Assembly (NCBI GenBank): GCA_030612885.1
Contig: JAUWMZ010000001.1
Location: 68,032 to 132,031 of the forward strand
Length of the DNA stretch: 64,000 bases
Origin: Candidatus Nealsonbacteria bacterium
GTDB lineage: Bacteria > Patescibacteriota > Minisyncoccia > Minisyncoccales > JAGMDC01
Direction: 5' to 3'
Shown here: one piece after another, positions 1,559 to 59,453 of the stretch
Numbering within the stretch: the first letter of the stretch is position 1
Layout of the letters: every line of letters begins with the position of its first letter
Notes under the pieces: model-generated
What the model saw: only the letters and a program-made list of their open reading frames with translations
Told to the model about the DNA's origin: nothing
Databases searched by the model: none
Position numbers and translations under genes: made by a program

Positions 1559-2684
1559 AATTAGTTATTCCGCGAAGGGCTGCACCAATAGCAGTAGTAT
1601 ATTTTAAAGATTCTTCTAACGGCATTTCTATTTCTTTGGAAATATTGATCCAAGGATTTCCTGATTGGGTTAAAGTTTTTAATTCAAGAGAGAGGAAGTT
1701 AGAAAGACCTTTTAAATTAGCTCCGCCGCCAGAAAGAATAATTTTTTCTACTCTTTCTCCGTTTTTAGAAATATGATTGGTAAATTCATGCGATTGATAA
1801 TAATCCAGATATGCATTTGTCTGCTCAATTAAATCAGTCAGAATAGGAATTAATGCCTCAAAAATTCTTTCTTCGCAAATAATTTCTTTTCTAAATCGTT
1901 TTTCGTTTCTCTTTCCTTTTAAATGAATTCTCTCCGGGCCTTTAAGCCCGTATTTTATTTTTAATTTCTCTGCTTTTTTAATATCAAGTTCTAAAGCTCG
2001 AGAAACAGCTTCGGTAAATTTTTGGCCAGAAATAGGAATAGAAGAAGTGAATCTTAAAGAATTATTTTTGAATATCATAAAGCCGGTCATGGCAGATCCC
2101 AAATCAATTAAAAGAACGGGAGCCGGGCTTTTCCCCTGCTTTATTAAAGCCCGGGCAATAGAGATGGAATCAACCTCCAACGCCTTAATCTGAAGCCCGG
2201 CTTTTTTAAAACAGGAAACATAACCATCTACTATCTCTTTAGGCATAGCCGCAAGCAAAACTTCAAGATAGCTCTGTTTGCTGTTCAAAGGAGAAATAAT
2301 CTGAAAATCAAGATAAACTTTATGGAGAGGAACCGGGATATAGTTTTCTGCTTCAAACCTAATAGCGCTTTCTATCTCTTCCTTTTCCATTTTCGGCATT
2401 TTAATTATTTGTAAAAACGCTTTTTCTTCTGGTAAAGAAGCAATTACATAATTCGTTTTTATTTTTTCCCCTTCAACATTGTTAATGGCTTTTCTTATAA
2501 CTTTTACTAAACCAGTTTCATTTTTAATTCTTCCTCCTTTTATTATCCCCGGTTTTATATCTCTCCGGCCAAAAGAAGCCAAAGCCAAACCATCACTCTT
2601 TTTCTTTAGCTTGATGAGCTTTAAAGACAAATCAGATATGTCTATGCCAAATGCTTCCGGATTGAGAGTTAAAAAATTAAACAT
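1551..2684 (-). CDS. pilM: PilM, actin-like ATPase of the type IV pilus platform
   Basis: 377 aa. N-terminus FGIDISDLSLKLIKLKK and an SGGGANLKGL motif are typical of PilM/FtsA-like proteins. Confidence 0.85.
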   Translation of the reverse strand: MFNFLTLNPEAFGIDISDLSLKLIKLKKKSDGLALASFGRRDIKPGIIKGGRIKNETGLVKVIRKAINNVEGEKIKTNYVIASLPEEKAFLQIIKMPKMEKEEIESAIRFEAENYIPVPLHKVYLDFQIISPLNSKQSYLEVLLAAMPKEIVDGYVSCFKKAGLQIKALEVDSISIARALIKQGKSPAPVLLIDLGSAMTGFMIFKNNSLRFTSSIPISGQKFTEAVSRALELDIKKAEKLKIKYGLKGPERIHLKGKRNEKRFRKEIICEERIFEALIPILTDLIEQTNAYLDYYQSHEFTNHISKNGERVEKIILSGGGANLKGLSNFLSLELKTLTQSGNPWINISKEIEMPLEESLKYTTAIGAALRGITNYD

Positions 2685-2696
2685 ATATTTTTATTT

Positions 2697-4016
2697 TTAT
2701 TCAACTTCTTTCCAGCTTATTACCTTCCAACCACCGGACGGTCCGCTGGAAAAACTAACGTCTTGAAGTCCAACTTCGTATTCAACTTCTGCGTTATTAT
2801 CAAGATAAATTTTGTACCCAACAACTTCTCTAACTTTCATATTATTACGCAACCGAATTAAACCGTCAGAAGTATAAAAAACTGCTCCTTCAGCATTGTT
2901 TTCTACATCAATAGCAGGGCTTGAAATATCTAAAGAAGAATTTGTAGAAAGAAGCATTATATAACTTCCTATTTCTCCGGACCCTTGTAGAATGACGCCT
3001 GGGCTAATATTAATTTTTCCATCAGATATAATTACACCGCTTGTTGAACCATAACCAGAATCTAGCCTTATAGTAGCATTATTTCCAATAATAATATCCT
3101 GTGTTACATAAATTGTTCCGGTTATTATTAAGGTGGCATTATTACTAACAGTTAAATTTCCTGTAATTTGTTGAGGTCCAAGGGATTTAGTTTCACCCAC
3201 GCCTACTGTGTAGTCCCCAACATAAATACAGCTTGGATTATTATTGCAATTTGCCTCGTCCTTCCAGTTGTTAATTTGTTCATCAGAAATGGGCATAGGA
3301 AGAGGATCAATTTGATTAGGTAAAGTTTTCAGTCCTCCGCCAGCAACACAATTTCCCGGAGTTCCTTCATCTCCCCAAGGAGGACCAGAAACATAAGTCA
3401 AGTCTCCTGCAATATTACAATCTTTACAGGTGTGAACTGTAGCATTTCCTCCAACCCATAACCATTCAATTTTTTTTCCATTATTAGCCACTATAATATC
3501 ATCAGTTATATTAAAACCTGCTCCAAATGCTTCACTTATATTAACAACATTCCCGTTTGAAAACACATTACCCTTAATCTTACTATTGGATTCCATTTCC
3601 ATCCCTCCATCACCAACTTGAGCTCCATAATGAAAAGAGATGCCTGTAGCGGCAATAGTTGCCACTACGCTAACTTTTCTAATGTATCCATCAATATTTC
3701 CCTCTGAAATTATCTCCCTGGTTCCGGCAATAATATCTCCTACATATCGAGTGGCTGTTCCTTCTCCTATATTCAAACTGCTGGGATTAGAAACAGGCAG
3801 TTCTATGTTTGTATTATTTCTTAGAAGTATATCTTCTATTCCTCCTTCTGCTATATAATAATTTTTTAAAGATTTGACAAAATTCTTAGTGAGCTGCCTT
3901 TCATTTAAAACTAAAGAGGAAAAAGCTAAAGTAATAATCAAAGAAAAAGACATTATAATAACAACAGTTGTAATTAAGGCAAATCCTTTTCCATTATTTT
4001 TAGATAAATTCTTCAT
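2697..4016 (-). CDS. large PilX-like minor pilin / pilus tip-associated protein
   Basis: N-terminus KGFALITTVVIIMSFSLIIT (PilX-N-like hydrophobic segment), followed by a Gly/Asn-rich, probably beta-rich domain. Confidence 0.5.
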   Translation of the reverse strand: MKNLSKNNGKGFALITTVVIIMSFSLIITLAFSSLVLNERQLTKNFVKSLKNYYIAEGGIEDILLRNNTNIELPVSNPSSLNIGEGTATRYVGDIIAGTREIISEGNIDGYIRKVSVVATIAATGISFHYGAQVGDGGMEMESNSKIKGNVFSNGNVVNISEAFGAGFNITDDIIVANNGKKIEWLWVGGNATVHTCKDCNIAGDLTYVSGPPWGDEGTPGNCVAGGGLKTLPNQIDPLPMPISDEQINNWKDEANCNNNPSCIYVGDYTVGVGETKSLGPQQITGNLTVSNNATLIITGTIYVTQDIIIGNNATIRLDSGYGSTSGVIISDGKINISPGVILQGSGEIGSYIMLLSTNSSLDISSPAIDVENNAEGAVFYTSDGLIRLRNNMKVREVVGYKIYLDNNAEVEYEVGLQDVSFSSGPSGGWKVISWKEVE

Positions 4017-17602: not shown

Positions 17603-18052
17603 TTATTTCTCATCGCTACTTTTAAAATTTGCGTCATCTAATAAATCGGATTGATACGGAGGTAAAATCTTACTTTTTCTTAATCCAAAAACAAAATCAG
17701 ACCATTGAAAAGCAGCAAACATCATTACCATTACACCTGCGCCAGCAACAACTTTTATCCAAAGAGGAAAACCTCTTTTAGTAGATTCAAAACCTGATTT
17801 TTCAATTAACCTATAAAATTCCTTTCTAAATAAATTGCCTGCTGCGGTTTCATCTGCCTCTTTGAATAATTGGTTAAAAACATCATCAGGAAGACCCTTT
17901 AATATCGTGTATATACCTTTTGGATTCTTGATCAGGGTTTTTGTAAGGCCTGTAAATCCTTCTTTCAAAAAAATATCTGCGATTTTCATTGCCCCTGCTT
18001 TCTTAAGAGCAAGAACACATTTAGGACGAATTTTGGAATTGAAGTAAGTCAC
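17603..18052 (-). CDS. hypothetical membrane protein
   Basis: 149-aa ORF with one C-proximal hydrophobic span (VVAGAGVMVMMFAAF). Confidence 0.4.
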   Translation of the reverse strand: MTYFNSKIRPKCVLALKKAGAMKIADIFLKEGFTGLTKTLIKNPKGIYTILKGLPDDVFNQLFKEADETAAGNLFRKEFYRLIEKSGFESTKRGFPLWIKVVAGAGVMVMMFAAFQWSDFVFGLRKSKILPPYQSDLLDDANFKSSDEK

Positions 18053-18253
18053 GGATTTAGTTAATTTTTGGGGTTTAACAGATGGAAATTGAATTTTTGG
18101 CTTGTGCCCGCTGGCGGAGTTTTGGTTGGCGCCGAACTATTTTAATCTTAAAAATGCGGTGTTTTTTCTGGATTCAGTTTTTGTCAGACGCTTTTCCGAA
18201 ATGTGTCTGGTTTTTTGGTTTAACAATGGTATTTCCTCTCTCTTAATAATAAC

Positions 18254-19927
18254 TTACTGCCGATGTCTCGGTAGTCCTGCGAGATATAATCGCTGAATCT
18301 GTGTTACGCTCAACACCCTATTATAAATCCTGACCTCGTCGATTGCGCCGTTGAAACATAAAGCTCTGTTAGGTCTTAAATCTCCGATAGTCAATATATT
18401 AGTCCAGGGATTAGTACCAACGTTATTATAAGTGAGTTTTAGCACACTATTGACATATACCTTTGTAGTTGAACCACTAATTGCTGTTTGCACAATATGG
18501 AACCAATCCTCTGTATTGATATTTGCCCCAGAAGTCAAGGTACCATCTGAAGATGATTGATAGGCAAAGGAATAAATCTCTGTTCCCTGCACACAAAGCC
18601 AGAGAGGATACCCCTCTTCAGCACTTGCCGAAGAAGCTATAATCCCACAATTAAAACTAGTGCAATTTATTCTATCCGTTTTAATCCAACTTTCTGCGGT
18701 ATATTCATTTCCTATTCCTATGCTGCCGCAGTTAATGTAGTCGGAAGAGCCATTAAAATATAACCCGGGCGGTTTAACTGTTGGCTTGTTTGCTTCTGTT
18801 GTTTGAGTTCCGTGATTGGCGTTGCCGGATAAATCAAAGTATTTGGCAGTGGAAATATAGCTGTATTGCGGCGAAATCCAAAGAACTGGCATTGCGTCAA
18901 ATGTGGAGGGAGGAGCAGAATAATCCTGCCAAGTCGGTTCAGAGCCCGTTGGTTCTAAGGTTCCATTGTTTTCATAAACAGATTGGTCATTCGCGGCAGT
19001 GCCTGTCCCTTCATTCATAGAAACGCGAAGCACAAGATCAGACCGTTTTATATCCGCGCCAATGTCGTAATTATTAGCAATGGTTGCTGTAATGCTTACT
19101 CCGGAATTAATCGCGCTGATTGTTGCTGTTTCTTCGCTCGTACCATCACCAATCCAAATTTTATCGTTAACAGTAAATCCGGTTGTGCTTGCAACTTCAA
19201 TCACTACATCAGTTCCTGCTGTCTCTGCATTTGAAGTTGTGGTTTCAGCATCATTTGTTTCTACTTCTTTGCCATTGTATCTATCTTTAATTTCGCTTTC
19301 TGAAAGTGCCCTATCATAAATCCTGACCTCGTCTATTATGCCGTTGAAATAACCTTCCTGTTCCCCCTGGAGATAACCCTGTCCTATTTTTAACAGATCA
19401 TCCCCTGTTCCCAAACTTCCTGTGGCTGATGTGGAATTCTTTAATTCACCATCCAAGTATATCCTCTTTTGACTCCCATTATAGGTTGCTGCCAAATGAT
19501 GAAAACCTGAGGGAAAAGAGATTCCCGTAAGCCATGTAATGCGTGATGTTGTAAATCCTATCTCTCCATACCGCATTCCTATTCCATATTTTGCTGTACC
19601 CATGCTGTCATCTTTTGATACTATGACATGCCAAAAATACTGTGAATCCTGCTTAGCCCACGCCTCAATCGTAATCGCATCAGTGATATTCAAAGAGGGG
19701 TCGTTGCCGCAGTTGATGTAGTCGTTGTCGCCGTCGAAAGTTAAAGCAGTATCGCTCTTTTCGGAAGTAATCTTCAAAATATCTGACATATAACGGGCCC
19801 GGTCTGCTTCAAAAGATGCCTGGCGAGCAAAAACATAAAAGTGTTGGCCGAGCAATATGGCGCAGCAGATAGCGAATATTATAATTGGGATTGTTTTTTT
19901 GTATTCCATAGGAATATCGCTAAACAA
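18254..19927 (-). CDS. secreted LamG-like (concanavalin A-type lectin) repeat protein
   Basis: N-terminal anchor plus repeated LamG_3 signatures (LTFDGDNDYINCG...IDEVRIYDRALS and LYFNGSSDYINCG...IDEVRIYNRVLS). Confidence 0.8.
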   Translation of the reverse strand: MFSDIPMEYKKTIPIIIFAICCAILLGQHFYVFARQASFEADRARYMSDILKITSEKSDTALTFDGDNDYINCGNDPSLNITDAITIEAWAKQDSQYFWHVIVSKDDSMGTAKYGIGMRYGEIGFTTSRITWLTGISFPSGFHHLAATYNGSQKRIYLDGELKNSTSATGSLGTGDDLLKIGQGYLQGEQEGYFNGIIDEVRIYDRALSESEIKDRYNGKEVETNDAETTTSNAETAGTDVVIEVASTTGFTVNDKIWIGDGTSEETATISAINSGVSITATIANNYDIGADIKRSDLVLRVSMNEGTGTAANDQSVYENNGTLEPTGSEPTWQDYSAPPSTFDAMPVLWISPQYSYISTAKYFDLSGNANHGTQTTEANKPTVKPPGLYFNGSSDYINCGSIGIGNEYTAESWIKTDRINCTSFNCGIIASSASAEEGYPLWLCVQGTEIYSFAYQSSSDGTLTSGANINTEDWFHIVQTAISGSTTKVYVNSVLKLTYNNVGTNPWTNILTIGDLRPNRALCFNGAIDEVRIYNRVLSVTQIQRLYLAGLPRHRQ

Positions 19928-19967
19928 AACGCGAAATATTACTCGAAACTTACGCGAAATTTTAACA

Positions 19968-22900
19968 TTACTGTAGGTCTAATGATATGGCTACATTCAT
20001 GCTGGCATTTGGCGCGGAAAAGGTCTCCAGTTTGGCATGGATTTCTTTTGAAAAATCATCATCATAGAGCTGGAAAAGATCTGTAAATTCTGCAACTTTC
20101 ACTACTCCGGAATTATCAGCATGGTCGCCAGCAAGAGCAGTAAAATCAAGATTAGTTGCATCAGTGACCGTTGTAATTCTTACATTTTCAGCATCACCGT
20201 CTAAATATCTAATTAAATCATATTTAAGCAAACCTGAAGTGTTATCCACAAGATCTGTGGTATCTGTTTCGCTCGCGCCTCCGTTGGTTTCAGTGTAAGT
20301 AAGGTTAAAGTAGAAATCTTTGATTAACTCATCTTCAGTCATTGAATTAGAGTTATAAAAAGATAAGCGGAAATTGATATTGGTATCAGCTGTTGGGTCA
20401 TTGGAAATATAGAGCTGGATTTTTCTGACTACTGGATTATCTGTTATTAATCCAGTGATATTAGCTTCTTTTGTTTGTGCCAGAGTAAAGCCAGTAAAAG
20501 AGCCGGTTTTATTACTGGTATCGCCAAAGGAAATATTTCCCTCAACATAGAGATCGCTTTCAACAACCAAATTACCGTTAGTTGAAAGAGTGATGTTTGG
20601 ACAAGATACACTTCCAAAAGTACCGCCTGTACAGACCCACAGATTTTCATCAAGAATATAAATATCATCGCCGCCAGACCCGGTTAGACCAACAGACAAG
20701 TCGCCAGTAGCATCAACATACATTTCAGCGTAATTAGTATTGTCCTGCTGGGTTAAACGCAATTGAGGAATACTTGTAGTGCTTTCCAAAACATCTAATC
20801 TTCTATCAGGCCCGGTTGTGCCGATTCCAACGCTAGCGCCAGTAATCTCTAAATAATTATTAGTGTCGTCAAAAGTTAGAATAGGCCCGTTCACCTTGCC
20901 AATTGTTCCTCCATCAGGCATTGTAATATCATTTATGGTTAAATTGCCAGTTGTCCCGGAATCAAATATAGTCATTAAGCTATTAACGCCATCAGTTATT
21001 GACAAAGTGCCAGTGTCTCCGATGCTTATTGAAGGAGTAAGAGAAGTAAAGGTTAAAGAGCCGTCAGCTAATGTAGTAGTCGTGCCAGCCACCATTACCG
21101 ATGTGCCAAAGTATCCTGTTCTTGGCCTGGTTGCTCCAGAAGCGCCAATGTCATAGGTATTGTCAGCAGAGAATAATAACGAAGCAGTGTTGATGGTGAG
21201 AGTGTCTGGCGTTGGCGTGCTGTCAAAAACCAATCTTCCAGCTGCCGCGCCTAATCCAATCCAGGTATCATCAGCCATTGTAATATTGCCGCTTGCTGAA
21301 ACAGATAAAGCTCCAGCTGTTATGTTTCCAGTAGTAGTTATGTTTTCATCGCCAAAAGATATGTCGCCGCCAGTGGCAGTAAAAGTTAAATCACCATTGT
21401 TGTCCACTGCTACTGAAATATAATTAGAACTGTCATAGGCAACAGTGAGCTGAGGACTGTTGGCGGAGGTAATAGTTGCCTGGCCTCCATTGGCAATAAC
21501 AAAGTTGTCTGTGCCGTCTGTTTGGAAACGGGCAATATTGCCTGTGCCCTGCTGGTTGACCCGAAGGCCGTCTGATGAGGAGCTAACAGTGAAAATAGCA
21601 GCGCCGGAATAGGCCTGGGCGCCGGTAACCGTGAGGTCGCCGGTAACTGTCATATCGCCCTGGGCGCTAACATCTCCTCCGAAAGTAACATTGCCTGTTG
21701 ATTGAGTTAAAGTATTATTGATGGTCACTGGACCGCTAAAAGTAGAAGCGGCAGCTACAGTTAATTTGTCAGAAGAATCTCCGCCTAAGACAGTATCGTC
21801 GCCAACTGATAAATCATGAACAGCAGCGGAACCGGAAACGCCTAAGGAAGCAAAGGAGCCATGTCCGCCAACCTGAATTCCTTGGGAAGCAATATATATT
21901 GGAGCGCTGGAAACAACTGTTTGAGGAGGAGTGGCTTGAAGTTTTTTGGTGATTGCCTGGAGGTTTTCAATATCAGCTTCCCAGCCAGTGATTGCGGCTA
22001 ATTGAGTTTTAAATTCAGCCAATGATTCTTCGTCAAGAACTTTTAACTCTTTGGTGATTTCTTTAATAGGTTCTATCTGGGTGATTCTTTGGATCTCTTT
22101 TATAATTTCTTTTTGAGGCAGGCCTTCTCTTTCCATTTTTTCAATCCTTGCCTGAAGGACTTCTAATTTCTGTTTTATTTCCTCATCTGTTTTTTCTTTT
22201 TCAACAACGATTTCTTCTTTTTCTTCCGGCCTTTCTCCCCAAGGAGAAACAAGAAATTTGTATGCTTGGCTTAATTTTTTTTCAACAATGTCATTGGCGC
22301 TTTGATATCCTTGTTTAAAAGTAATACCAGTGTTAACTATTTTGTCACCGATGTTTGACGGCTCTTCTTTTATTATTTTGCTTACAATAACAGCCTGCTC
22401 TCCATACCATCGGCTGAATTTCTGAAAGATATTGAGGCCGTATTTAATATCATCGCTTGCTCCTTCAACTGCTTCTGCTAAAAAATACTTGGCATCTTCA
22501 CTCGTTAACAAAATACTCGCTCCTAAATTATAAAAAAAGTTTTTTGTTTCTGCTTCTAATGTATCTGATATTGCTATTATTCCCTGGCTCCATTCATCTA
22601 CTGATTTATTTATTTTTATTAAAGATTGGTTGAGAAATGTTTTAGAATTTACAATTGAACCGCCTATTGCTTTGGTTAAAATTGCTCTTACTGGAGGGAT
22701 TTCAATTTCAGGAAAAGCTAATTCAGGAAAAGCTATTTTTGGAATTTCTATTTTTGGCAATTTGACATCTGGGATTTCTATCTCTGGAATTTCTATATCA
22801 GAAATAAAAGCCATCGTGTCTTTAAAATCCTGTATCGGGTGCAAATCAATGTCTGGTATTGATATGTTTGGTATTGACAATCCAGGTAATTCAGGAAGCG

Positions 22901-23363
22901 ATGGTTTTTTAATTGATTTAAGGTTTGCAGCTATCTGATTACTGCCTATCCTCATCTCTTTTACAATGTTGAGCATAGTATCGGAAGCTGCGATAGATAG
23001 TTCTGTACCAGTTTTTATTAAAATGTCTTTGGACAGTAAAAGAGTGTCTTTATTAAAATCAAAAACAACTCCGATTGTAAGCAAAGAAAAAACCAAAACC
23101 CCTGCTATTGCGTATCGTAAAGCGTATCGGAGTTTTGGCTGCTTAAATATATTTGAAAACGATATTGCTGGTCTTTCAACTTTTTTGTATTTTCTTGAAT
23201 CGTTCTTTAGGTATTCATCCAGCCACTCTTTTTTGGTCACCCAGTTCCTGCCGAATTTAATTGCCTTTAGCTTCCCTTGTCTGGCTCTCAATGACAAATA
23301 CTCCTGTGAGTAATCGCAGTATTTTGTTGCTTCTTGTAAAGAGATGTAATCGTTTTCAGCCAT
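19968..23363 (-). CDS. giant (1131 aa) surface protein with N-terminal excisionase/MerR-like HTH, TM segment, coiled coil and Gly/Thr-rich beta-rich C-terminal region
   Basis: N-terminus ISLQEATKYCDYSQEYLSLRARQGKLKAIKFGRNWVTKKEWLDEYL, then TM span AIAGVLVFSLLTIGVVF. Followed by (E/K)IxIP short repeats and long G/T/S/N-rich tracts. Confidence 0.75.
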   Translation of the reverse strand: MAENDYISLQEATKYCDYSQEYLSLRARQGKLKAIKFGRNWVTKKEWLDEYLKNDSRKYKKVERPAISFSNIFKQPKLRYALRYAIAGVLVFSLLTIGVVFDFNKDTLLLSKDILIKTGTELSIAASDTMLNIVKEMRIGSNQIAANLKSIKKPSLPELPGLSIPNISIPDIDLHPIQDFKDTMAFISDIEIPEIEIPDVKLPKIEIPKIAFPELAFPEIEIPPVRAILTKAIGGSIVNSKTFLNQSLIKINKSVDEWSQGIIAISDTLEAETKNFFYNLGASILLTSEDAKYFLAEAVEGASDDIKYGLNIFQKFSRWYGEQAVIVSKIIKEEPSNIGDKIVNTGITFKQGYQSANDIVEKKLSQAYKFLVSPWGERPEEKEEIVVEKEKTDEEIKQKLEVLQARIEKMEREGLPQKEIIKEIQRITQIEPIKEITKELKVLDEESLAEFKTQLAAITGWEADIENLQAITKKLQATPPQTVVSSAPIYIASQGIQVGGHGSFASLGVSGSAAVHDLSVGDDTVLGGDSSDKLTVAAASTFSGPVTINNTLTQSTGNVTFGGDVSAQGDMTVTGDLTVTGAQAYSGAAIFTVSSSSDGLRVNQQGTGNIARFQTDGTDNFVIANGGQATITSANSPQLTVAYDSSNYISVAVDNNGDLTFTATGGDISFGDENITTTGNITAGALSVSASGNITMADDTWIGLGAAAGRLVFDSTPTPDTLTINTASLLFSADNTYDIGASGATRPRTGYFGTSVMVAGTTTTLADGSLTFTSLTPSISIGDTGTLSITDGVNSLMTIFDSGTTGNLTINDITMPDGGTIGKVNGPILTFDDTNNYLEITGASVGIGTTGPDRRLDVLESTTSIPQLRLTQQDNTNYAEMYVDATGDLSVGLTGSGGDDIYILDENLWVCTGGTFGSVSCPNITLSTNGNLVVESDLYVEGNISFGDTSNKTGSFTGFTLAQTKEANITGLITDNPVVRKIQLYISNDPTADTNINFRLSFYNSNSMTEDELIKDFYFNLTYTETNGGASETDTTDLVDNTSGLLKYDLIRYLDGDAENVRITTVTDATNLDFTALAGDHADNSGVVKVAEFTDLFQLYDDDFSKEIHAKLETFSAPNASMNVAISLDLQ

Positions 23364-23495
23364 AAACTAAGTGATATCCAATACTTAAATTAATTAATTA
23401 TTGATTATTTATCACTGATTATTACTCTATTTTCTTATAATCAAGAGGGCTTGTCAAATAGAAACTGTGGATAACTATCGGATGTCAAAAACACT

Positions 23496-23527
23496 AAAAA
23501 AACCGAGAATAGTTCTCGGTTTTTTTG
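23496..23527. terminator. bidirectional intrinsic terminator
   Basis: AACCGAGAA-TAG-TTCTCGGTT hairpin flanked by an A-run and a T-run, directly downstream of tsaE. Confidence 0.75.
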
Positions 23528-23547
23528 AATTGATTATTTATCACTGA

Positions 23548-24021
23548 TTAGTAATTATTTATGACGATTCTTCTGGTGTTTTCGCTGCCGAAATCAAACT
23601 TTATTTTGATAATGTTTTTGGGCAGGATTTTTTCTATTTTTTCTGGCCATTCTATGGCAACAATGTTTTTTGGATTGGAAATAATTTTTTTAAACCCGAT
23701 ATTAAAAATTTCCTCTGGTTTTTGAATACGGTAGCAATCAATGTGGAAGAAGTATTGATAATTGATCATTGGTAACTGATCATTAATCATTGATGGTAAT
23801 GGGAACTTTTTCATTATTATAAAAGTCGGGCTAAGGATTTTTTCTTTAATCCCCAGTCCCCTGGCAAAGCCCTGAACAAAAGTTGTCTTGCCTGCGCCCA
23901 AATCGCCGCTTAAAGCGATTACTAAAGCGCTTTTTTTTTGAGGAAGTTTTAGAATTTTTTTCGCCAAGCTCTGTCCCAGCTTTTTTGTTTGAGAAGAATT
24001 AGCGGTTAGATGTTTTTCCAT
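23548..24021 (-). CDS. tsaE: tRNA t6A37 modification ATPase TsaE
   Basis: GDLGAGKTTFVQGFARGLG and SPTF motifs. Carries an extra segment (PLPSMINDQLPMINYQY) encoded by a TGAT/TAAT repeat tract. Confidence 0.8.
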   Translation of the reverse strand: MEKHLTANSSQTKKLGQSLAKKILKLPQKKSALVIALSGDLGAGKTTFVQGFARGLGIKEKILSPTFIIMKKFPLPSMINDQLPMINYQYFFHIDCYRIQKPEEIFNIGFKKIISNPKNIVAIEWPEKIEKILPKNIIKIKFDFGSENTRRIVINNY

Positions 24022-24081
24022 ATTGACTATATTTGTTATTTGAGTTAATTTGAAATAATACTTATTAGCTTACTCTATTGT

Positions 24082-25404
24082 ATGAATAAAAAAATAACTG
24101 GTCAAATTGTAATATCATCGGCTAAGATTTCTGAGACGCAGAAGAAAGTAAAAAATATTTCTAATTTCAAAAAAAATATTGAAGCAGTTTTAGAAAAAAA
24201 CATTACTGAAATTTTGGAAAACATTTTAGTCGGTTCAATAAATTTAGATACTTCAGACATCCATATTGAGCCAAGAAAAAAAGATACAAAAATTAGAGTG
24301 AGAATTGACGGCATACTTCAAGAAGTTATTTCTCTCCAGACAGATATATATCAAGCCCTGTCTTCCAGAATCAAACTCTTAAGCGGTATAAAATTAAATA
24401 TTTCTGACCGTGCCCAGGACGGCAGATTTTCTATTATTTTTGAAAAAAGCGAGAAAGAAAAGGAAGACAAGACAATCATAGAAATCAGGACTTCCTTCCT
24501 GCCCTCTGAATACGGAGAGTCAATTGTTTTAAGAATTTTAAATCCTAAATCCCTGATTGAGCTTGAAGCCCTGGGATTAAGAAAGGATTTGCTGGCTACT
24601 TTTTTGAAAGAGATAAAAAGGCGAAATGGAATGGTTATTGTTACCGGTCCCACTGGTTCTGGAAAGACCACCACTCTTTATACTTTTCTAAAAAAAATTC
24701 AAAGACCGCAAATTAAAATCATAACCATTGAAGACCCGATTGAATACCATCTCAAAGGGGTTTCCCAAACCCAAGTGAAGCCGGAAAAAGGATATGACTT
24801 TGCCAATGGTCTTCGTTCTATTATGAGGCAGGACCCGGACGTCATTCTGGTAGGAGAAATCAGGGACTTGGAAACAGTAAAAATTGCTATTCAGTCAGCC
24901 CTGACCGGCCATTTAGTTTTGACCACCTTACATACTAATGATGCTGCCGGAACCATTGCCCGGTTAATTAATTTGGGCGCCAAAGCGAACAATATTGGAC
25001 CGGCTGTCAATGTGGTAATTGCCCAAAGATTGGTAAGAAAAGTTTGTCAGAAATGCGGTAGATTAGAAAATGCCTCTAAAATAGAAATTGAGAAAATAAA
25101 AAATGGGTTGAAGGGTATTTCCAAAGAAATTAAAGTTCCAAAAATTGGCACGGGGTTGAAGATTTTAAAAGCAAAAGGATGTAAAGATTGCAACCAAACT
25201 GGTTATAGAGGAAGGGTAGGAATTTTTGAAGCAATTTTAATTGACGAGGAAATAGAAAAATTTATTTTAGAAAATCTTTCTATTGCCGCTTTGAAAGAAA
25301 AAGCGCTGAAAAAAGGAATGGTAACAATGAAGCAGGACGGCTTGCTTAAGGTTTTAAACAAAGAAACCAGCATAGAAGAAGTAGAAAGGGTTACCGGAGA
25401 GTAA
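24082..25404 (+). CDS. pilB: PilB/GspE-family type IV pilus/secretion ATPase
   Basis: Walker A GPTGSGKTT, Asp/His boxes, and a tetracysteine motif (CQKCG...CKDCNQTGYRGRVGIFE). Confidence 0.9.
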   Translation: MNKKITGQIVISSAKISETQKKVKNISNFKKNIEAVLEKNITEILENILVGSINLDTSDIHIEPRKKDTKIRVRIDGILQEVISLQTDIYQALSSRIKLLSGIKLNISDRAQDGRFSIIFEKSEKEKEDKTIIEIRTSFLPSEYGESIVLRILNPKSLIELEALGLRKDLLATFLKEIKRRNGMVIVTGPTGSGKTTTLYTFLKKIQRPQIKIITIEDPIEYHLKGVSQTQVKPEKGYDFANGLRSIMRQDPDVILVGEIRDLETVKIAIQSALTGHLVLTTLHTNDAAGTIARLINLGAKANNIGPAVNVVIAQRLVRKVCQKCGRLENASKIEIEKIKNGLKGISKEIKVPKIGTGLKILKAKGCKDCNQTGYRGRVGIFEAILIDEEIEKFILENLSIAALKEKALKKGMVTMKQDGLLKVLNKETSIEEVERVTGE

Positions 25405-25471
25405 ACCCCGCACCTTTTATGGATAGTTTCGTTTTTTTTACACAAAGTGCAATCCATAAAAGGTGCGGGGT
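25405..25471. repeat. 20-bp perfect inverted repeat (ACCCCGCACCTTTTATGGAT / ATCCATAAAAGGTGCGGGGT) with 27-nt loop
   Basis: Starts 1 nt after the pilB stop and abuts the A/T run that ends the minus-strand sRNA candidate. Confidence 0.85.
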
Positions 25472-25607
25472 AAAAAAATAGCCCAAGGCTGGGGACAAAA
25501 CTTCAGTTTAAAACCATAGTTCAGAATTTTTCTGAGGAATAATCCGGCACTACCTGGATTATCCATTAACTAAGAGAAATTCCTGCGTCCCCAACCTTAG
25601 GCTATCT
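25472..25607 (-). ncRNA. orphan small RNA (about 130 nt), unknown family
   Basis: Consensus promoter immediately upstream on the minus strand. A 19-bp terminal helix (25587-25605 with 25478-25496) is perfect on the minus strand when two G-U pairs are allowed; on the plus strand these are C-A mismatches. The helix is followed by U6. Internal hairpins include AGGAAU/AUUCCU, UAAUCC/GGAUUA and UCAGAA/UUCUGA. Confidence 0.55.
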
Positions 25608-25610
25608 ACC

Positions 25611-26909
25611 TTGATTATAATGGATATTGTGAATTTGTCAACCCCAACACCAAACAAACATAGCTTTGTTGTAGCGCGGGGGTCAATCCTTTTGCTTTTG
25701 CTTGTTAGTTTTTTGTTTTTTGAAATCGGTTTTAAGGCCGATTTTATTTTAGCCGATGAATCGTTTAATGTAGTAATCAATGAAATTACCTGGATGGGCA
25801 CAAAAGAATTTTACAACGATGAGTGGATTGAATTATACAATAATAGCGATTCAGCTGTAAATCTTAGTGGCTGGACATTAAAAGCTGATGATGGCAGCCC
25901 GGAAATTGAACTCTCTGGCAGGATTTTGAGTAAAAGTTTTTATTTGCTGGAAAGGACTGATGACGAAACAGTGGCTGGTGTTTTGGCCGACCAAATCTAT
26001 AAAGGAGGATTGGCTAACAAAGGCGAATGTCTAAAGCTTTTTGATGAACAGGAAAATTTGATTGACAAAGTGGACTGCTCTGACGGGTGGTTTGCCGGAG
26101 ACAACAAGACCAAACAAACAATGGAAAGGTCTGTTGAGGTCAAGCTTCAACAGGTTCATTGGCAGACCAGCCAAGAGCCGGGCGGCACCCCAAAAAAACA
26201 GAATAGCCAACCAGCTGAGGAATCGGTTGAGGTCAAACCTCAACCGTTCCATCAACAGGAGGTTATTGATGTCAAACTTCAACAGCCTAATTATGGCGTA
26301 GTTTATCCTTCCGGGATAGTTGTCAACGAAGTGCTCCCCTCTCCTGAAGGCCCTGATGCAGAAAATGAATGGATAGAAATTTTCAATGAAAATAATCTTG
26401 AAGTTGACATTTCCGGCTGGAAAATTTCTGACACTGTCGGCAGTGTCAAGAGTTATATTTTTCCCAAAGGAACAAAAATTTCCGGCAAAGGATTCTTGCT
26501 TCTCAACAGGCCAAAAACAAAAATTACTTTAAATAATAGCGGTGAGGGATTAAAAATTTTTAATCCCAATGGAAAAATAGTTGATGAAATAAATTTTGGA
26601 AAAGCGCTTTTGGGACAGTCGTATAATAAGTTTGACTCTCAATGGCAGTGGTCAGAGAATCTAACTCCAGGCTCTGCAAACATCGCCTCATCGGTAAAAA
26701 AAGACCTTTTAGAAAACAGTTCCCCAGAAGTTATACAGAAAAATCTGGAGGAGAACAAAAATCCTCTTTTATTGTCTTCGCTGTTAGAATCTCCATTGTC
26801 AGAGAAAAACAAGAGTTCTATATTTAAATTGTTAATGATTGCTTTATCTATTAGTGTTTGTTTTGGGTTTTTAATTTTATTTCTAAAAAAGAAATTGAAA
26901 ACTGATTAA
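25611..26909 (+). CDS. lamin-tail-domain (LTD) x2 protein with signal anchor and C-terminal TM anchor
   Basis: Two LTD signatures (VVINEITWMG...NDEWIELYN...LSGWTL and IVVNEVLPSP...ENEWIEIFN...ISGWKI). The start may be the ATG at 25620. Confidence 0.8.
   Translation: MIIMDIVNLSTPTPNKHSFVVARGSILLLLLVSFLFFEIGFKADFILADESFNVVINEITWMGTKEFYNDEWIELYNNSDSAVNLSGWTLKADDGSPEIELSGRILSKSFYLLERTDDETVAGVLADQIYKGGLANKGECLKLFDEQENLIDKVDCSDGWFAGDNKTKQTMERSVEVKLQQVHWQTSQEPGGTPKKQNSQPAEESVEVKPQPFHQQEVIDVKLQQPNYGVVYPSGIVVNEVLPSPEGPDAENEWIEIFNENNLEVDISGWKISDTVGSVKSYIFPKGTKISGKGFLLLNRPKTKITLNNSGEGLKIFNPNGKIVDEINFGKALLGQSYNKFDSQWQWSENLTPGSANIASSVKKDLLENSSPEVIQKNLEENKNPLLLSSLLESPLSEKNKSSIFKLLMIALSISVCFGFLILFLKKKLKTD
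25614..25641 (-). promoter_or_regulatory. consensus sigma70 promoter (TTGACA-N16-TATAAT) on the minus strand
   Basis: The -35 box is the reverse complement of 25636-25641. The -10 box is the reverse complement of 25614-25619. Both are exact consensus hexamers. Confidence 0.65.
26133..26283. repeat. three copies of a palindromic 19-mer (GTTGAGGTCAAACCTCAAC-like) inside the LTD linker
   Basis: Copies at 26133-26151, 26226-26244 (perfect 8-bp arms) and 26265-26283, read as VEVKLQQ / VEVKPQP / IDVKLQQ. The core GAGGTCAAACCTC is shared with the hairpin at 28178-28206. Confidence 0.8.
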
Positions 26910-26947: not shown

Positions 26948-27682
26948 ATGTCAGGCCATTCCCATTTTTCAAGTATAAAACATAAAAAAGAGATTACTGA
27001 TGCCAAGCGGGGCAAGGTTTTTTCTAAATTAGCCCGGCAGATTTCTGTTGCTGTCAGAGAAAAAGGAAGCGACCCGGAAACCAATTCCGGTTTGCGTTTG
27101 GTTATTGAAAAAGCCAAGGAGTTTAATATGCCTAAGGACAATATAGAGAGAGCCATAAAAAGAGGAACAGGCGAATTAGCAGAAGAGAAGTTAGAGGAAG
27201 TAATTTATGAGGCATATGGTCCGGGTGGAATAGCTATTATTATTGAGGGAATTACTGACAATAAAAACAGGGCATTAGGAGAAATTAAGCAGATTTTAAG
27301 TCAGGCAGGAGGAAAGCTGGCTGACAGCGGCTCGGTAAAATGGATGTTTGAAAGAAAAGGAGCTATAATAATCATTTATCATTTATCATTGACCAATAAT
27401 CAGTCAAAAGAAGATTTAGAGATGAAAGCAATAGAAGCAGGCGCGGATGATATTTATTGGCATAATGATATATTAGATGTTTACACCAAACCCGAGAATT
27501 TGGAAAAGGTTAAGAAAAATTTGGAAAATCAAGGAATCAAGGTTGAGTCCGCCTCACTTGACTGGGTGGCAAAAGATGAAATTGAATTAGAAGAAAAAGA
27601 GAAAAAAGCAGCAGAAAGATTATTTGAATTATTGGACGAAAACGAAACAGTCCAAGAAATTTATTCTAATCTTAAAACATAA
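26948..27682 (+). CDS. yebC: YebC/PmpR-family transcriptional regulator
   Basis: The N-terminus reads MSGHSHFSSIKHKKEITDAKRGKVFSKLARQI, which is canonical for the family. The gene also contains an in-frame TGAT/TAAT repeat tract at 27366-27403. Confidence 0.9.
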   Translation: MSGHSHFSSIKHKKEITDAKRGKVFSKLARQISVAVREKGSDPETNSGLRLVIEKAKEFNMPKDNIERAIKRGTGELAEEKLEEVIYEAYGPGGIAIIIEGITDNKNRALGEIKQILSQAGGKLADSGSVKWMFERKGAIIIIYHLSLTNNQSKEDLEMKAIEAGADDIYWHNDILDVYTKPENLEKVKKNLENQGIKVESASLDWVAKDEIELEEKEKKAAERLFELLDENETVQEIYSNLKT

Positions 27683-27684
27683 AT

Positions 27685-28179
27685 ATGATTATTTTAGGCA
27701 TTGATCCGGGAACGGCCACAACTGGATATGGAATTATAAAAGCGAAAAATTTAAAGCAAAGAGCAAAAAATAATTTAAAATGCTTGAGCTATGGCTGTAT
27801 TAAAACCAGTCCGGAGTTTAGCGACGGCGAACGATTAAAAAAAATAAATTGGGAACTAAATAAAATAATTCGAGAATATAAGCCAAAAGTTTTAGCAGTG
27901 GAAAGCATCTTTTTCTTTAAAAACTTAAAAACTGCTATGCCGGTAAGCCAGGCAAAAGGAGTAATATTGTTTACGGCCGCCAAGAAAAAAATACCTGTTT
28001 ATGAGTTTACACCACTCCAAGTTAAAATGGCAATTACGGGCTATGGAAGGGCAGAGAAAAAAGAGATTCAGAAAGCGATAAAAAGCATTCTGAATTTAAA
28101 AGAAATACCAAAACCAGATGATGCGGCAGATGCTTTAGCCATAGCGGTTTATTATACAAATCTTGTAAAAACGAGTTAA
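27685..28179 (+). CDS. ruvC: Holliday junction resolvase RuvC
   Basis: The N-terminus is IILGIDPGTATTGYGII and a DAADALAIA motif lies near the C-terminus. Confidence 0.9.
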   Translation: MIILGIDPGTATTGYGIIKAKNLKQRAKNNLKCLSYGCIKTSPEFSDGERLKKINWELNKIIREYKPKVLAVESIFFFKNLKTAMPVSQAKGVILFTAAKKKIPVYEFTPLQVKMAITGYGRAEKKEIQKAIKSILNLKEIPKPDDAADALAIAVYYTNLVKTS

Positions 28180-28227: not shown

Positions 28228-28255
28228 TTGACAAAATTTCTAAAAAAAATATAAT
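28228..28255 (+). promoter_or_regulatory. consensus sigma70 promoter (TTGACA-N16-TATAAT)
   Basis: Exact hexamers at 28228-28233 and 28250-28255, about 100 nt upstream of the acidic-protein ORF. Confidence 0.65.
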
Positions 28256-28354: not shown

Positions 28355-28675
28355 ATGATTAACGAATTTATTAGTCAAGAAGAAGAAACTCCTAAAGAGG
28401 AAGAAAAAGAGGAAGAAAAAGAGGAAGAAAAAACTTCTTCTGAAGAAGTAACTAGTCAGGATACAGAAGAAGGAACTCCTGAAGAAGGCGCTACTGAAGG
28501 AGGAGAAGAAACTCCTAAAACTGAAGGAACTCCTGAAACTGGAGAAGGTGAAGAAGAGAAAGAAAAAGAAGGAGAAAAAGAAGGAGAAAAAGAAGGAGAA
28601 GAAAAAGAAGGAGAAAAAGAAGGAGAAGAGAAAGAAGAAGAGAAAGAAGAAGAGAAAGAAACTCCAGTTGTATAG
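28355..28675 (+). CDS. small, extremely acidic E/K/G/T-rich low-complexity protein
   Basis: 106-aa ORF bracketed by a consensus promoter and a good terminator. The opposite-strand F/S-rich ORFs are judged to be shadows. Confidence 0.55.
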   Translation: MINEFISQEEETPKEEEKEEEKEEEKTSSEEVTSQDTEEGTPEEGATEGGEETPKTEGTPETGEGEEEKEKEGEKEGEKEGEEKEGEKEGEEKEEEKEEEKETPVV

Positions 28676-29974: not shown

Positions 29975-30647
29975 AATTTTGAGGGACAGGGGAGGGACAG
30001 TCCCTCCCCTGTCCCTCTACGATATTTAGATGACGTGTCTTAAGAAAATATCCAGAAACGAGAAGGTCTTTGGCTAATTTCCGATATTCTTGTCTGGCTT
30101 TTTTAATATTATTAGAGACAAGAGATAAAATAAATTTATCCTGGGTAATTCCATCCTCTCTTAATCCAAGATGAACAGGATAACTATTCCAGGGGTCTCT
30201 CTCGGCTTCCTCTAAAAGTTTTGTCAAAATGCTTTTTGAAATATTTTGGTTATTAATACGCTGAAGTTTTTCCAGAACTTTATTTAGATTAATATAAATG
30301 GAAGTGGGTAAAAGAGCATTTTCTCCAAGTTGTTCTGCTTTAAATCTATCTTGGAACAAATGCCCTACCCGAGAATACTTTTTATTTATATGGAGACCAA
30401 AACTAGTATGGAGACTACCAATAAATTTACTAGGAGGAACTTCAGAAGTTTGTTCAATTAAATAATGAACATGGTTAGGAAGTAAATTATAGGCATGAAT
30501 GTTCACTGGATATTTTTTAAGAAATTCTTTAATTTTATAAAGATAAAATATAAAATCTTCTTTCCTGTGAAAGATATTTTCTTTAGCAACTCCTCTACTA
30601 AAAATATGCCAAAAACTTCCTTTATAAAATTTTCGTAGTTGTCTCAT
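29946..30647 (-). CDS. Y1 HUH transposase-like protein (IS200/RAYT family)
   Basis: FWHIFSRG, HUH motif LLPNHVHYLI, GHLFQDRFKAE and a Tyr-region (SIYINLNKV). I prefer the ATG at 30647 over the tracked 30725. The C-terminal residues are read through the REP palindrome and overlap the tyrS start. Confidence 0.75.
   Translation of the reverse strand: MRQLRKFYKGSFWHIFSRGVAKENIFHRKEDFIFYLYKIKEFLKKYPVNIHAYNLLPNHVHYLIEQTSEVPPSKFIGSLHTSFGLHINKKYSRVGHLFQDRFKAEQLGENALLPTSIYINLNKVLEKLQRINNQNISKSILTKLLEEAERDPWNSYPVHLGLREDGITQDKFILSLVSNNIKKARQEYRKLAKDLLVSGYFLKTRHLNIVEGQGRDCPSPVPQNYDRYQSKKN
29982..30016. repeat. REP-like GC-rich palindrome copy 2
   Basis: Same 35-nt core as 86-120. Lies 8 nt upstream of the tyrS start codon and inside the 3' end of the transposase-like ORF. 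Confidence 0.85.
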
Positions 30648-30726: not shown

Positions 30727-30773
30727 CAAACAAGGGACAGGGGAGGGACAGTCCCTCCCCTGTCCCTTGTTTG
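30727..30773. repeat. REP-like GC-rich palindrome copy 3 (extended 23-bp arms)
   Basis: CAAACAAGGGACAGGGGAGGGAC-A-GTCCCTCCCCTGTCCCTTGTTTG, immediately upstream of the transposase-like gene. Confidence 0.85.
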
Positions 30774-46203: not shown

Positions 46204-46581
46204 ATGCCTTATCGTCATCAACAATTCGTCAATAGAGAAATATATCACATTATCATCAGGGGAATCGATGATAATTTAATCTTTAGGAACGCAGACGATT
46301 ATTATCGAGCTATTTTTTCTATCTATGAATTTAATAATGCTAACGCGGTAGAAATTTATAAAAGGCGCCGTGAAATTCAAACCATAAAAAAACATTTAAA
46401 GAACAAGCCGGGGGAGGCCGGGCCTCCCCCGAGCTTTTCGTTAGGATTTTGGACGCGTATACGCAGAAGATTTGACAAATTTGGTATAGATGCTATAATT
46501 ATGGCAGCACTCTACAATAGAATATATGATAAAGGCTATGCGATGAAAGTGCTGATAGAAAGTAAAAAAAATAGGAGGTGA
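46204..46581 (+). pseudogene. decayed Y1/RAYT-like transposase fragment
   Basis: N-terminus REIYHIIIRGIDDNLIFRNADDYYRAIFSI matches the family start, but no HUH motif follows. Interrupted by GC palindrome CGGGGGAGGCC-G-GGCCTCCCCCG at 46409-46431. Confidence 0.5.
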
Positions 46582-46591
46582 AAAAGAAAAA

Positions 46592-47731
46592 ATGGGATGG
46601 AAAAAAAGAATCGCTTTAGGGCTTGTATTGATAATAGCTCTCTGGTTGCTATGGGGAACAGTAGAAATAGTAAAATGGTGGGTATTGGTCATTATAGGAA
46701 TACCCATTACAGTAATAGCAGGTTTGTTGTTTGCCTATTTCTTTTTGGCTAAGCCCAGTCAGAACCGATGGTTTACTTTTGTAAAAGAAGGAACAGCAAA
46801 AATTGTTGTCCGAGGAGATAAATTCGAGAAAGCATTGATTCAGTGGGAAGGATATACTCTCAGCGAAGAAATTAAGAAAGACGGGAAAGGAAAGATAATT
46901 CAAGATAAGTGGGATATTATTAAAGGAGAAGAAAAAGGGCATCCTCTCGGTGGTTTCAGGTATTACGGATTTTGGCCCTTCAAAGATATGTATGCCTATG
47001 ATTTTGAATGGACAGGGGTAAAAGAAAACGGTGAAATTATCCATCATCCAAAAGAAACACTGGACTATATTCTCTTAAAAGACGATGTGTATTGGGCAAA
47101 AGTAGAACAAGCAGAGGATAAAGAATTATTGCCATTAGAAGTAGAGATAATTCTAACTATTAGAATTATCAATCCTTACAAGGCGTTATTCAATGTCCAG
47201 AACTGGTTAGAAATAGTGATAAACAGAATAAAACCTTGGGTTAGAGATGCTGTCACTCATGATACCTACGAGAATCTAATCAAACAGCCTGATCGGATAG
47301 GAGAAGAGATGTACGGGAAGTTAAAGGACGCAGGATTATTGGAGAACGAATTTATTGCTCGTTATGGAGTGGATGTCAGAAAAATCGAAGTGAAAGAGAT
47401 AAATCCGCCCAAGGAATACAGAGACGTAACTCTTAGAAAATATACAGCCGAACAAGAGAAAAAAAGAATTGTCATAGAAGCTGAGGCAGAGGCAGAAAGA
47501 TTAAATACCGTCTATGGTAAGATTCAGCAATTCGAGGATTTAGGGAGATTAGTCCGAACATTGGAAGCAGTGGAGAAAAGCCCCTTAGCCGCCAGTTTGA
47601 CTGTTCAGGCAGTTCCAGGACTTCCAGAAGCTCTAAAAGGAATTTTTGGAAAATCAGCAGATACAATAAGTCAGAAAGAATTCAGAGAACTGAAAGAGAT
47701 GGTTGAGAAACTAGTGAAAGAAAAAAAATAA
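46592..47731 (+). CDS. SPFH/band-7 (prohibitin-like) membrane protein
   Basis: Strong RBS (AGGAGGTG), two N-terminal TM spans, an SPFH-like core, and a C-terminal coiled coil (EQEKKRIVIEAEAEAERL). Confidence 0.65.
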   Translation: MGWKKRIALGLVLIIALWLLWGTVEIVKWWVLVIIGIPITVIAGLLFAYFFLAKPSQNRWFTFVKEGTAKIVVRGDKFEKALIQWEGYTLSEEIKKDGKGKIIQDKWDIIKGEEKGHPLGGFRYYGFWPFKDMYAYDFEWTGVKENGEIIHHPKETLDYILLKDDVYWAKVEQAEDKELLPLEVEIILTIRIINPYKALFNVQNWLEIVINRIKPWVRDAVTHDTYENLIKQPDRIGEEMYGKLKDAGLLENEFIARYGVDVRKIEVKEINPPKEYRDVTLRKYTAEQEKKRIVIEAEAEAERLNTVYGKIQQFEDLGRLVRTLEAVEKSPLAASLTVQAVPGLPEALKGIFGKSADTISQKEFRELKEMVEKLVKEKK

Positions 47732-59393: not shown

Positions 59394-59453
59394 TATTTAC
59401 TTTCTTTTCCAGTGGGGCTATTATTAAGTTAGAACAATTAAATATTCAAATTG

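Follow-up and report, generated by a model that had tools for sequence, protein, structure and literature searches.

The window analysed here is the whole 64-kb stretch of contig JAUWMZ010000001.1, with a G+C content of ~34%. Our subject is a short intergenic region within it, in which a predicted small RNA gene of ~136 nt (25472–25607, minus strand) is placed between two protein-coding genes of the plus strand: a convergent gene for a PilB/GspE-family (T2SSE) ATPase of 440 aa (24082–25404; Pfam T2SSE, E = 1.6e-113) and a divergent gene for a surface protein with two lamin-tail domains (LTD; 25620–26909; Pfam LTD, E = 8.8e-30). An initial annotation of the window had singled out this RNA as an orphan that could act as a cis-antisense regulator of the LTD gene. 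The analyses below indicate that it is very probably a real, structured RNA gene and a member of a new family.

The promoter of the RNA gene is an exact match to the consensus at 12 of 12 positions: TTGACA (25641–25636), a 16-nt spacer and TATAAT (25619–25614), all on the minus strand and just as initially annotated. The 64-kb window has three exact TTGACA-N16–18-TATAAT sites, where shuffles would lead one to expect 0.09. The two remaining sites, at 28228–28255 and 46472–46499 (both plus strand), read TTGACAAA(A/T)TT; each is followed by a hairpin-containing leader of ~85–90 nt and then by an open reading frame (ORF). The ORF behind the first (28355–28675) encodes 106 aa and is extremely acidic and E/K-rich; the one behind the second (46592–47731) has a clear AGGAGG.

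The 5′ end of the RNA was placed from the sequence, 7 nt past the −10 hexamer (~25607), and the 3′ end likewise, in a U-tract. The beginning and end of the predicted transcript pair to form a terminal helix of two 19-nt arms, ATAGCCTAAGGTTGGGGAC (25605–25587) and GTCCCCAGCCTTGGGCTAT (25496–25478), which includes two U·G pairs that become C·A when read on the plus strand; RNAfold lengthens the helix to 21 bp. Directly 3′ of it are six U (25472–25477, minus strand), the tail of an intrinsic terminator. Helix, wobble pairs and U6 are all present at the coordinates first given for them. The minus-strand RNA of 136 nt has a minimum free energy of −58.9 kcal/mol (z = −7.8), and none of 200 shuffles was as stable; the plus-strand mirror of the RNA reaches −46.5 kcal/mol. 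No second copy was detected in the 64-kb window, including with the covariance model (R1) described below, against which the window copy scores 152.5 bits.

The label of orphan does not hold: the RNA belongs to a widespread and strongly covarying family of the Parcubacteria/Paceibacteria. A first set of homologues came from six PilB relatives with 66–90% identity (L005, L006, L008, L010, L011 and L012). In all six loci a homologous RNA is found at the same site, on the strand opposite to pilB, together with a TTGACA...TAnAAT promoter and compensatory changes in the terminal helix. Metagenome contigs were then scanned with a degenerate pattern taken from the RNA core alone, which returned at least 120 stretches; the R1 model gave at least 68 loci at 60–152 bits, corresponding to 52 distinct sequences from Patescibacteria metagenomes and metagenome-assembled genomes. 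Members measure 119–135 nt from the start to the end of the closing helix (P1), and the window copy ~136 nt with leader and tail. Carriers with a name fall in Minisyncoccales, Nealsonbacteria and “Paceibacterota”.

A PilB search of genome contigs returned five loci and was used for taxon names rather than as a census. The nearest named PilB relatives are from Minisyncoccales, “Candidatus Parcubacteria”, Nealsonbacteria and the Patescibacteria group. Judged by the taxonomy of these closest named relatives, the host is a bacterium of the candidate phyla radiation (CPR), of the Parcubacteria/Paceibacteria lineage, and it is across this lineage that the family, to go by its homologues, is conserved. 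An association with phage was considered and rejected: the R1 model had no match in viral contigs (IMG/VR), and six pattern matches there were unrelated coding sequence. Possible paralogues were likewise dismissed, the weak R1 matches in L023 and L125 (22.6 bits) being ordinary terminator region.

The signals that surround the RNA in the window recur throughout the family. Among 48 homologous loci with upstream sequence, the −35 hexamer TTGACA (25636–25641 in the window) is exact in 46, and 46 also have a TAnnnT at the position of the −10 hexamer (25614–25619), at a spacing of 16–17 nt. Of 49 complete homologues, 39 have a run of at least four U behind P1, and an A-rich leader precedes P1 in 36 of 50 loci. 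Promoter on the one side, stem and U-tract on the other, both on the strand of the structure: across the family this is the arrangement of an independent small RNA gene.

The family fold is a three-way junction composed of P1, a P2–P3 arm and P4 (all minus strand). P1 is at once closing helix and terminator stem. It is 20–22 bp long, ends in a G5/C5 clamp and in the window is formed by 25586–25606 (5′ strand) and 25477–25497 (3′ strand); its 22 consensus pairs all show double-sided compensatory changes, and 94% of P1 cells are paired. A linker of 0–4 nt leads to P2, where GGAAUUUCUCUUAG (25570–25583) pairs with UCAGAAAAAUUCU (25523–25535), as both the fold and covariation indicate. P2 begins with an invariant G·U/G-C step; in the consensus GGAAUyUuUC pairs with GAaAraUUCU, with covariation at columns 33/84 (UA 29, CG 18) and, from RNAalifold, 35/82 (UA 31, CG 16). 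An asymmetric internal loop carrying a conserved UUAG separates P2 from P3, a hairpin (GGAUAAUCC...GGAUUAUUCC, 25536–25564) with a conserved base, GGAUA... pairing with ...UAYUCC, and covariation at columns 52/70, 54/68 and 55/67. P2 and P3 have four pairs apiece with double-sided changes, and the signal is strongest at the columns just named. Two of the wobble pairs, G·U at 28/89 (50 of 52 sequences) and at 48/74 (49 of 52), are all but invariant. The apical loop of P3, by comparison among members, varies (GAGA, UCCG, GGAA, GUUU, UUUUUA and others), as though stable tetraloops were interchangeable at this position.

The junction itself is built from short linkers: J1/2 and J4/1 are variable in sequence and J2/4 is conserved only as a 2-nt RA. 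On its 3′ side a tentative P4, a short and weak hairpin (25498–25522), has an ACUU/AAGU base in most single-sequence folds (−1 to −7 kcal/mol). A compensatory ACUA/UAGU is seen only in three near-identical sequences (L058, L061 and L063), and RNAalifold did not recover P4 from either the full alignment (A2) or a MAFFT sub-alignment.

The covariation analysis in relatives that had been proposed with the initial annotation gives a clear outcome. In A2 (52 sequences) 92.1% of cells are standard pairs, against 36–58% in slid controls, and double-sided changes occur in 30 of 45 pairs. The covariation score is 0.387 versus 0.205 in shuffles, a value reached by none of 500, and falls to 0.08–0.15 when the pairing is slid by 1–3 columns. 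A2 was fitted to a model built from seven members, so that the pair counts lean towards that structure; an independent MAFFT/RNAalifold analysis of the first seven sequences agrees with the A2 fold.

The same alignment settles the strand. Over all pairs there are 315 G·U/U·G against 77 A·C/C·A, an asymmetry that cannot come from the symmetry of DNA. Because of this asymmetry, the promoter (46 of 48 loci) and the U-run (39 of 49), the functional molecule is the minus strand of the window; the preference for that strand expressed from the single sequence is thus upheld over 52 homologues. It also bears on the notion that selection acts on a DNA-level element, whether a miniature inverted-repeat transposable element (MITE), a repetitive extragenic palindrome (REP) with terminal inverted repeats, a palindromic protein site or a plain bidirectional terminator. 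The terminal inverted repeats of 19–21 bp, the position between convergent transcription units and the presence of REP-like palindromes elsewhere in the window would all suit such an element. Yet mobile repeats are difficult to reconcile with a single copy in the 64-kb window, a pilB-adjacent site shared by every homologue and no matches in viral contigs, while the excess of G·U, the invariant wobbles, covarying internal helices and a consensus promoter kept at the right place speak against a purely DNA-level role. We regard this explanation as scarcely credible.

Constraint is distributed unevenly over the molecule. Over the P2–P3 arm, identity to the window copy averages 74%, a value close to that of pilB codon positions 1+2 (78%), whereas third positions of pilB, which are apparently saturated, stand at 47%. 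P1 is only 59% identical despite its paired cells, and it follows that the arm is constrained in sequence and P1 only in pairing. Conservation like that of codon positions 1+2, a perfect promoter, a covarying fold and co-occurrence with PilB/GspE together make the RNA a good candidate for a new class of functional RNA.

None of the known RNA classes accounts for it. At gathering score the only Rfam 15 match in the whole window is a LOOT RNA at 59452–59567; at E ≤ 10, the interval 25350–25700 returned only spurious miRNA-type matches on a separate hairpin at 25405–25471; and at E ≤ 1 five diverse homologous loci gave nothing at the RNA. ARAGORN found no tRNA or tmRNA in the window. The original reading, which had recognised no signal recognition particle (SRP), 6S or tRNA signature and had recommended an Rfam search, is in these respects sustained. 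LOOT RNA (RF03000) is itself a multi-helix RNA of ~120 nt with no assigned function, recognisable by comparative analysis alone, and in this it is alike; it differs in being an already curated family, and there is no similarity in sequence or structure.

The closest parallels are with housekeeping RNAs. Like 6S RNA (ssrS), the present RNA is stand-alone, has its own strong sigma-70 promoter and a long closing helix that joins end to end, carries a G/C-rich clamp by a central irregularity and is a mostly double-stranded rod or Y that lacks features of an mRNA seed. It differs in length (119–135 nt against ~150–200 nt), and any binding of RNA polymerase here is hypothetical. No match to RF00013 or RF01685 was obtained (E ≤ 10 in 25350–25700; E ≤ 1 in the five homologues). 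A bubble of at least ~10 nt on the 5′ side is also missing: the P1–P2 linker has 0–4 nt and P2 covaries. Lacking a two-sided bubble and falling short of the required length, the RNA is excluded from the 6S family. Small SRP (4.5S) RNA is comparable in size, is dominated by a hairpin and has an asymmetric internal loop in a long arm; we found no RF00169 match, no conserved GNRA tetraloop and neither symmetric nor asymmetric loop motifs, and this class too is excluded. Y RNAs (YrlA/Yrn1) share a length of ~110–130 nt and a long terminal stem, made from both ends, that bears a multi-helix module. Bacterial Y RNA (YrlA) was nonetheless rejected, there being no Rfam match and no T/D loops; the GG of GGAUA is paired and the P4 loop unconserved. 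Neither is there a match to 5S rRNA (RF00001), whose helix I has ~10 bp against the 20–22 bp of P1.

One may still ask whether the RNA is an analogue, or a very divergent member, of such a class: an SRP RNA, something akin to a Y RNA, or a small version of 6S RNA that would bind RNA polymerase. Its stand-alone gene and consensus promoter, the long G5/C5-clamped helix, an A/U-rich P2 next to the junction and conservation throughout the class are all reminiscent of housekeeping RNAs, as is a segment of ~25–30 nt with a small hairpin on the 3′ side of the junction. In 6S RNAs a similar segment is found on the 3′ side of the central bubble. This must be set against the lack of any match to the Rfam 6S, 6S-Flavo, SRP, Y RNA and 5S models at the thresholds given above, a 5′ side of the junction too short, and a P2 too well supported by covariation, for a bubble resembling an open promoter, and a P3 apical loop that is not a conserved GNRA. 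Parcubacteria have moreover been reported to lack both ffh and ffs (PMC4508563), and the usual Rfam model for 5S rRNA, RF00001, does recover the parcubacterial genes (PMC9297842). A housekeeping analogue of this kind is, in our estimation, improbable.

Other candidates failed for simpler reasons. For a retron RNA (msr-msd), what lies downstream is antisense pilB, and there is no reverse transcriptase gene in the called neighbourhoods. A small ORF within the region (25438–25566, 42 aa) mostly lacks its ATG in homologues, which read UCGGAUA and not AAUGGAUA, and it runs through the terminator. Resemblances noted by eye to P5 of the thiamine pyrophosphate riboswitch, the 16S rRNA 3′ end and anti-Shine-Dalgarno sequence, a K-turn, a sarcin-ricin motif and a −10-like UAAACU are inconsistent across the family.

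Turning to the genomic context, the most constant feature is the convergent neighbour. Among the matches listed, which were retrieved by the RNA pattern and not by pilB, the convergent ORF is a PilB orthologue (58–100% identity) in all 50 loci with enough flanking sequence, and the pilB stop codon falls between −27 and +80 nt of the RNA 3′ end in every one, mostly at about −10 to +20 nt and usually no more than 10 nt away; in many loci it lies inside or beside the complement of the U-tract. The genes for TsaE, YebC and RuvC are adjacent in the window. More generally, the surroundings of pilB and the RNA contain genes of DNA uptake and recombination: a comM-like Mg-chelatase, dprA, ruvB, ComEA-like HHH+LTD, yebC and ruvC (L008 1–2313; L006 5543–6550; window 26948–28179). 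In view of this neighbourhood the ‘PilB’ of 430–450 aa may be a competence-type ATPase.

The divergent gene, in contrast to the RNA, which remains unchanged, varies from locus to locus: it encodes an LTD protein, a ComEA-like HHH+LTD protein or RuvB. In most loci its ATG is inside the spacer of the RNA promoter, and 37 rows have CAT at an identical place within that spacer. Among the exceptions, L005 has its ATG beyond the −35 hexamer, and in the window the ATG abuts the −10 hexamer (25620–25622, plus strand). The divergent proteins start M-x-N/I-L-S, where the −35 box itself encodes L-S; in the window the plus strand of this hexamer specifies the ‘LS’ of an N-terminal NLS. An N-terminus of the form M-x-N/I-L-S-(R/S) is shared by otherwise unrelated LTD, ComEA-LTD and RuvB proteins (window 25611–25641; L006 5543; L011 4462; L010 4476), since the spacer and −35 box of the RNA promoter double as the opening codons of all three. 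It is present even in the cytoplasmic RuvB, where it extends the N-terminus. Such sharing suggests that different genes have been exchanged behind a fixed module of promoter and start codon.

Both ends of the RNA gene have features that read in two directions. On the plus strand the −10 region is TATTnTA in ~39 of 48 loci, a mirrored TAnnnT hexamer 8–9 nt before the ATG, and the ATT that precedes the ATG is conserved (ATTATG). P1, with A-rich sequence before it and U-rich sequence after it, is laid out as a bidirectional terminator would be. E. coli is known to have promoters that work in both directions from a symmetric −10 (TAnnnTA), as well as intrinsic terminators that serve two convergent genes at once. 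The RNA gene resembles these in its TAnnnTA (~39 of 48 loci) and in the A-rich and U-rich flanks of P1; it differs in that the ‘loop’ of the terminator is a conserved structured RNA of 90 nt and in that there is no conserved plus-strand −35. A single intergenic stretch of ~190 bp holds a terminator for two convergent units, an RNA gene with its promoter, and the start codon of the gene that follows, an extreme case of compaction. In seven loci (L001, L005, L006, L008 and L010–L012) many of the called genes have A/T-rich or TATAAT-like sequence immediately in front of the ATG.

This geometry bears directly on the proposal that the RNA is a cis-antisense regulator of the LTD gene, in which the RNA had been said to overlap the promoter, 5′ region and start codon of LTD. 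The promoter of the RNA does overlap that start codon, but the predicted transcript itself (≤25607) stops short of the ATG and does not enter the LTD coding sequence. Because the divergent gene varies (LTD, ComEA-LTD, RuvB), with PilB/GspE as the constant neighbour, an antisense role specific to LTD is unsupported. The idea can be generalised to a cis-acting module of antisense or transcriptional interference, where a strong minus-strand promoter, lying on the start of the next gene, would drive transcription straight against pilB, the RNA would pair perfectly with pilB read-through or with a long 5′ untranslated region of the downstream gene, leading to cleavage by RNase III, and the flanking genes would be uncoupled or repressed. 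Such a module would suit an RNA whose position never changes, converging on pilB with its end at or across the stop codon (50 of 50 loci), and whose promoter overlaps the downstream start codon in most loci; furthermore, ~20% of members have no U-run, so that read-through into antisense pilB is conceivable, and the plus-strand mirror folds stably too.

Convergent antisense RNAs that overlap a gene at the 3′ end are familiar from type I toxin-antitoxin systems, for example the antitoxin RNAs of the RatA/txpA type. The likeness extends to a small RNA gene that converges on a protein-coding one, to 3′ ends that meet or run into each other and to a strong constitutive promoter. Here, however, the overlap with either coding sequence is at most a few nucleotides, pilB is no toxin and the body of the RNA covaries. 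A conserved three-way junction with near-invariant helices is not needed for an antisense RNA of perfect complementarity, which requires no intramolecular fold; yet P1, P2 and P3 covary, G·U pairs, which would be mismatches on the plus strand, are invariant and the P2–P3 sequence is kept as are codon positions 1+2. With a downstream target gene that is not conserved besides, we think the cis module rather unlikely.

The absence of any gene on the same strand, the RNA running into the 3′ end of convergent pilB, likewise removes an ordinary riboswitch or cis leader from consideration. A variant would be a riboswitch-like junction that senses a ligand or signal and controls its own termination, and so antisense transcription into pilB. 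Riboswitch-controlled antisense RNAs do exist in Listeria and Clostridium, and here conserved nucleotides surround the junction and the internal loop, P1 doubles as terminator stem and only antisense pilB lies downstream. A G/C-clamped P1 of 20–22 bp is nevertheless far too stable for ligand switching, no alternative (anti-terminator) pairing is conserved, and the linkers of the junction are short and mostly variable. The variant strikes us as highly unlikely.

We are left with a trans-acting RNA that binds protein, a reading to which we give roughly an even chance on the comparative sequence evidence. The RNA would be made constitutively and at a high level, with P1 both terminating it and protecting its two ends; a perfect promoter and the enclosure of both ends in a long helix lead us to expect an abundant and stable molecule. 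Stable, almost fully double-stranded and Y-shaped, it would act in trans. Since few single-stranded nucleotides are conserved, while helical boxes are and the loop is interchangeable, recognition would be by a protein partner that contacts helical faces, namely two boxes (GGAAU/AUUCU and GGAUA/UAYUCC) that include the G·U pairs, and the internal loop UUAG. That the RNA stays constant whichever gene adjoins its promoter also fits action in trans. The RNA could accordingly be a component of a ribonucleoprotein (RNP) or a decoy; pairing with mRNA through a seed would be unlikely. A secondary role in cis is envisaged because of the absolute linkage to pilB and the overlap of promoter and start codon: the gene would form a boundary between the pilB unit and the next gene, with A-rich leader, P1 and U-tract serving as a bidirectional terminator, and the −10 region (TAnnnTA) may serve, back to back, a nearly leaderless mRNA of the downstream gene.

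A number of points weigh against this reading of a trans-acting, protein-binding RNA with a role at the boundary. All loci were retrieved through one sequence pattern. Transcription itself, the ends of the transcript and its abundance are predictions, and P4 and the register of the P2/P3 internal loop are tentative. The protein partner, on the genome fragments covered, is putative. The absolute linkage to pilB (50 of 50 loci) may mean that some of the function is local, in cis, rather than in trans. As for the bidirectional promoter, there is no conserved plus-strand −35 across the homologous loci, and the nearly leaderless mRNA that may arise from a back-to-back promoter is suggested by geometry only. 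The want of a Shine-Dalgarno sequence is uninformative as evidence for leaderless mRNA, given that no such motif occurs within 20 nt upstream of 44 of 49 called genes in the same seven loci. This scarcity agrees with reports of an absent anti-Shine-Dalgarno motif in some Parcubacteria (PMC9297842).

A bolder version of the trans-acting reading would make the RNA a class-wide RNP RNA of housekeeping type, specific to the Parcubacteria/Paceibacteria (reported to be without SRP) and with a new function: either that of a regulator or cofactor tied to the type-IV-pilus or DNA-uptake ATPase, or that of a new kind of global regulator of RNA polymerase or translation. Its gene would also be embedded in a compact unit that combines a terminator and a promoter, both bidirectional, with a leaderless mRNA. 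We put this forward tentatively and with more doubt than confidence.

A stand-alone, structured small RNA is in itself a familiar kind of object in bacteria. The family, its fold, its coupling to PilB/GspE and a promoter placed inside the first codons of the next gene are undescribed in Rfam 15 and, so far as it can be searched, in the literature: we found no description of this element in the literature on non-coding RNAs of CPR/Parcubacteria, and no description there of non-coding RNAs specific to CPR/Patescibacteria. These organisms make up a large share of bacterial diversity and are almost entirely uncultured. A candidate for a new class of functional RNA in minimal genomes, where little persists without reason, offers a target for metatranscriptomics, RNP pull-downs and structural work, and the covariance model could enter Rfam.

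The stretch that separates the RNA from the pilB stop codon contains a perfect inverted repeat of 20 bp with a 27-nt loop (25405–25471; arms 25405–25424 and 25452–25471). The repeat, also listed in the initial annotation, is real. Of the relatives examined with flanking DNA unlike that of the window, the closest is L005 (PilB 90% identical); the repeat is absent there and for that reason does not belong to the RNA. L006 has an unrelated hairpin in the corresponding place. On this comparison the repeat is a strain-specific extra hairpin outside the RNA family, and probably an additional terminator for pilB or the RNA. Further G/C-rich hairpins, often with ACCCC... at their start, are found in other members: in the gap of ~30 nt between promoter and P1 in L052 and L077, and, as in the window, in the gap of 66–80 nt between RNA and pilB stop in L006, L052/L123, L055 and L068. 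They may be small, insertion-prone elements. Elsewhere in the window a perfect palindrome, GAGGGACAGGGGAGGGAC-n-GTCCCTCCCCTGTCCCTC, occurs three times (85–121, 29981–30017 and 30727–30773), with six arm matches against none expected; it looks like a REP-like repeated hairpin or a terminator element.

The LOOT RNA mentioned above is full-length (59452–59567, plus strand) and scores 91.8 bits against a gathering score of 46.4. It lies 59 nt downstream of an ORF of 312 aa (58455–59393, plus strand) whose N-terminus, YQRVSTKEQ..., has by eye the look of a serine recombinase. This copy, on a contig with Patescibacteria genes, is possibly at the edge of an integrated element.

Lastly, two observations concern the wider surroundings of pilB. 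The cumulative GC skew is lowest near 20 kb, and genes change orientation at the boundary of tsaE and pilB (24021/24082), so the region of ~18000–24100 could, on sequence grounds, be a replication origin; the skew flips again at 38, 46 and 58 kb and may only track gene orientation. In L006, a Minisyncoccales relative, genes for an AbiEii toxin and a DUF6922 protein are inserted by tsaE (2604–3484), an insertion absent from the window; the two genes are likely a toxin-antitoxin pair.

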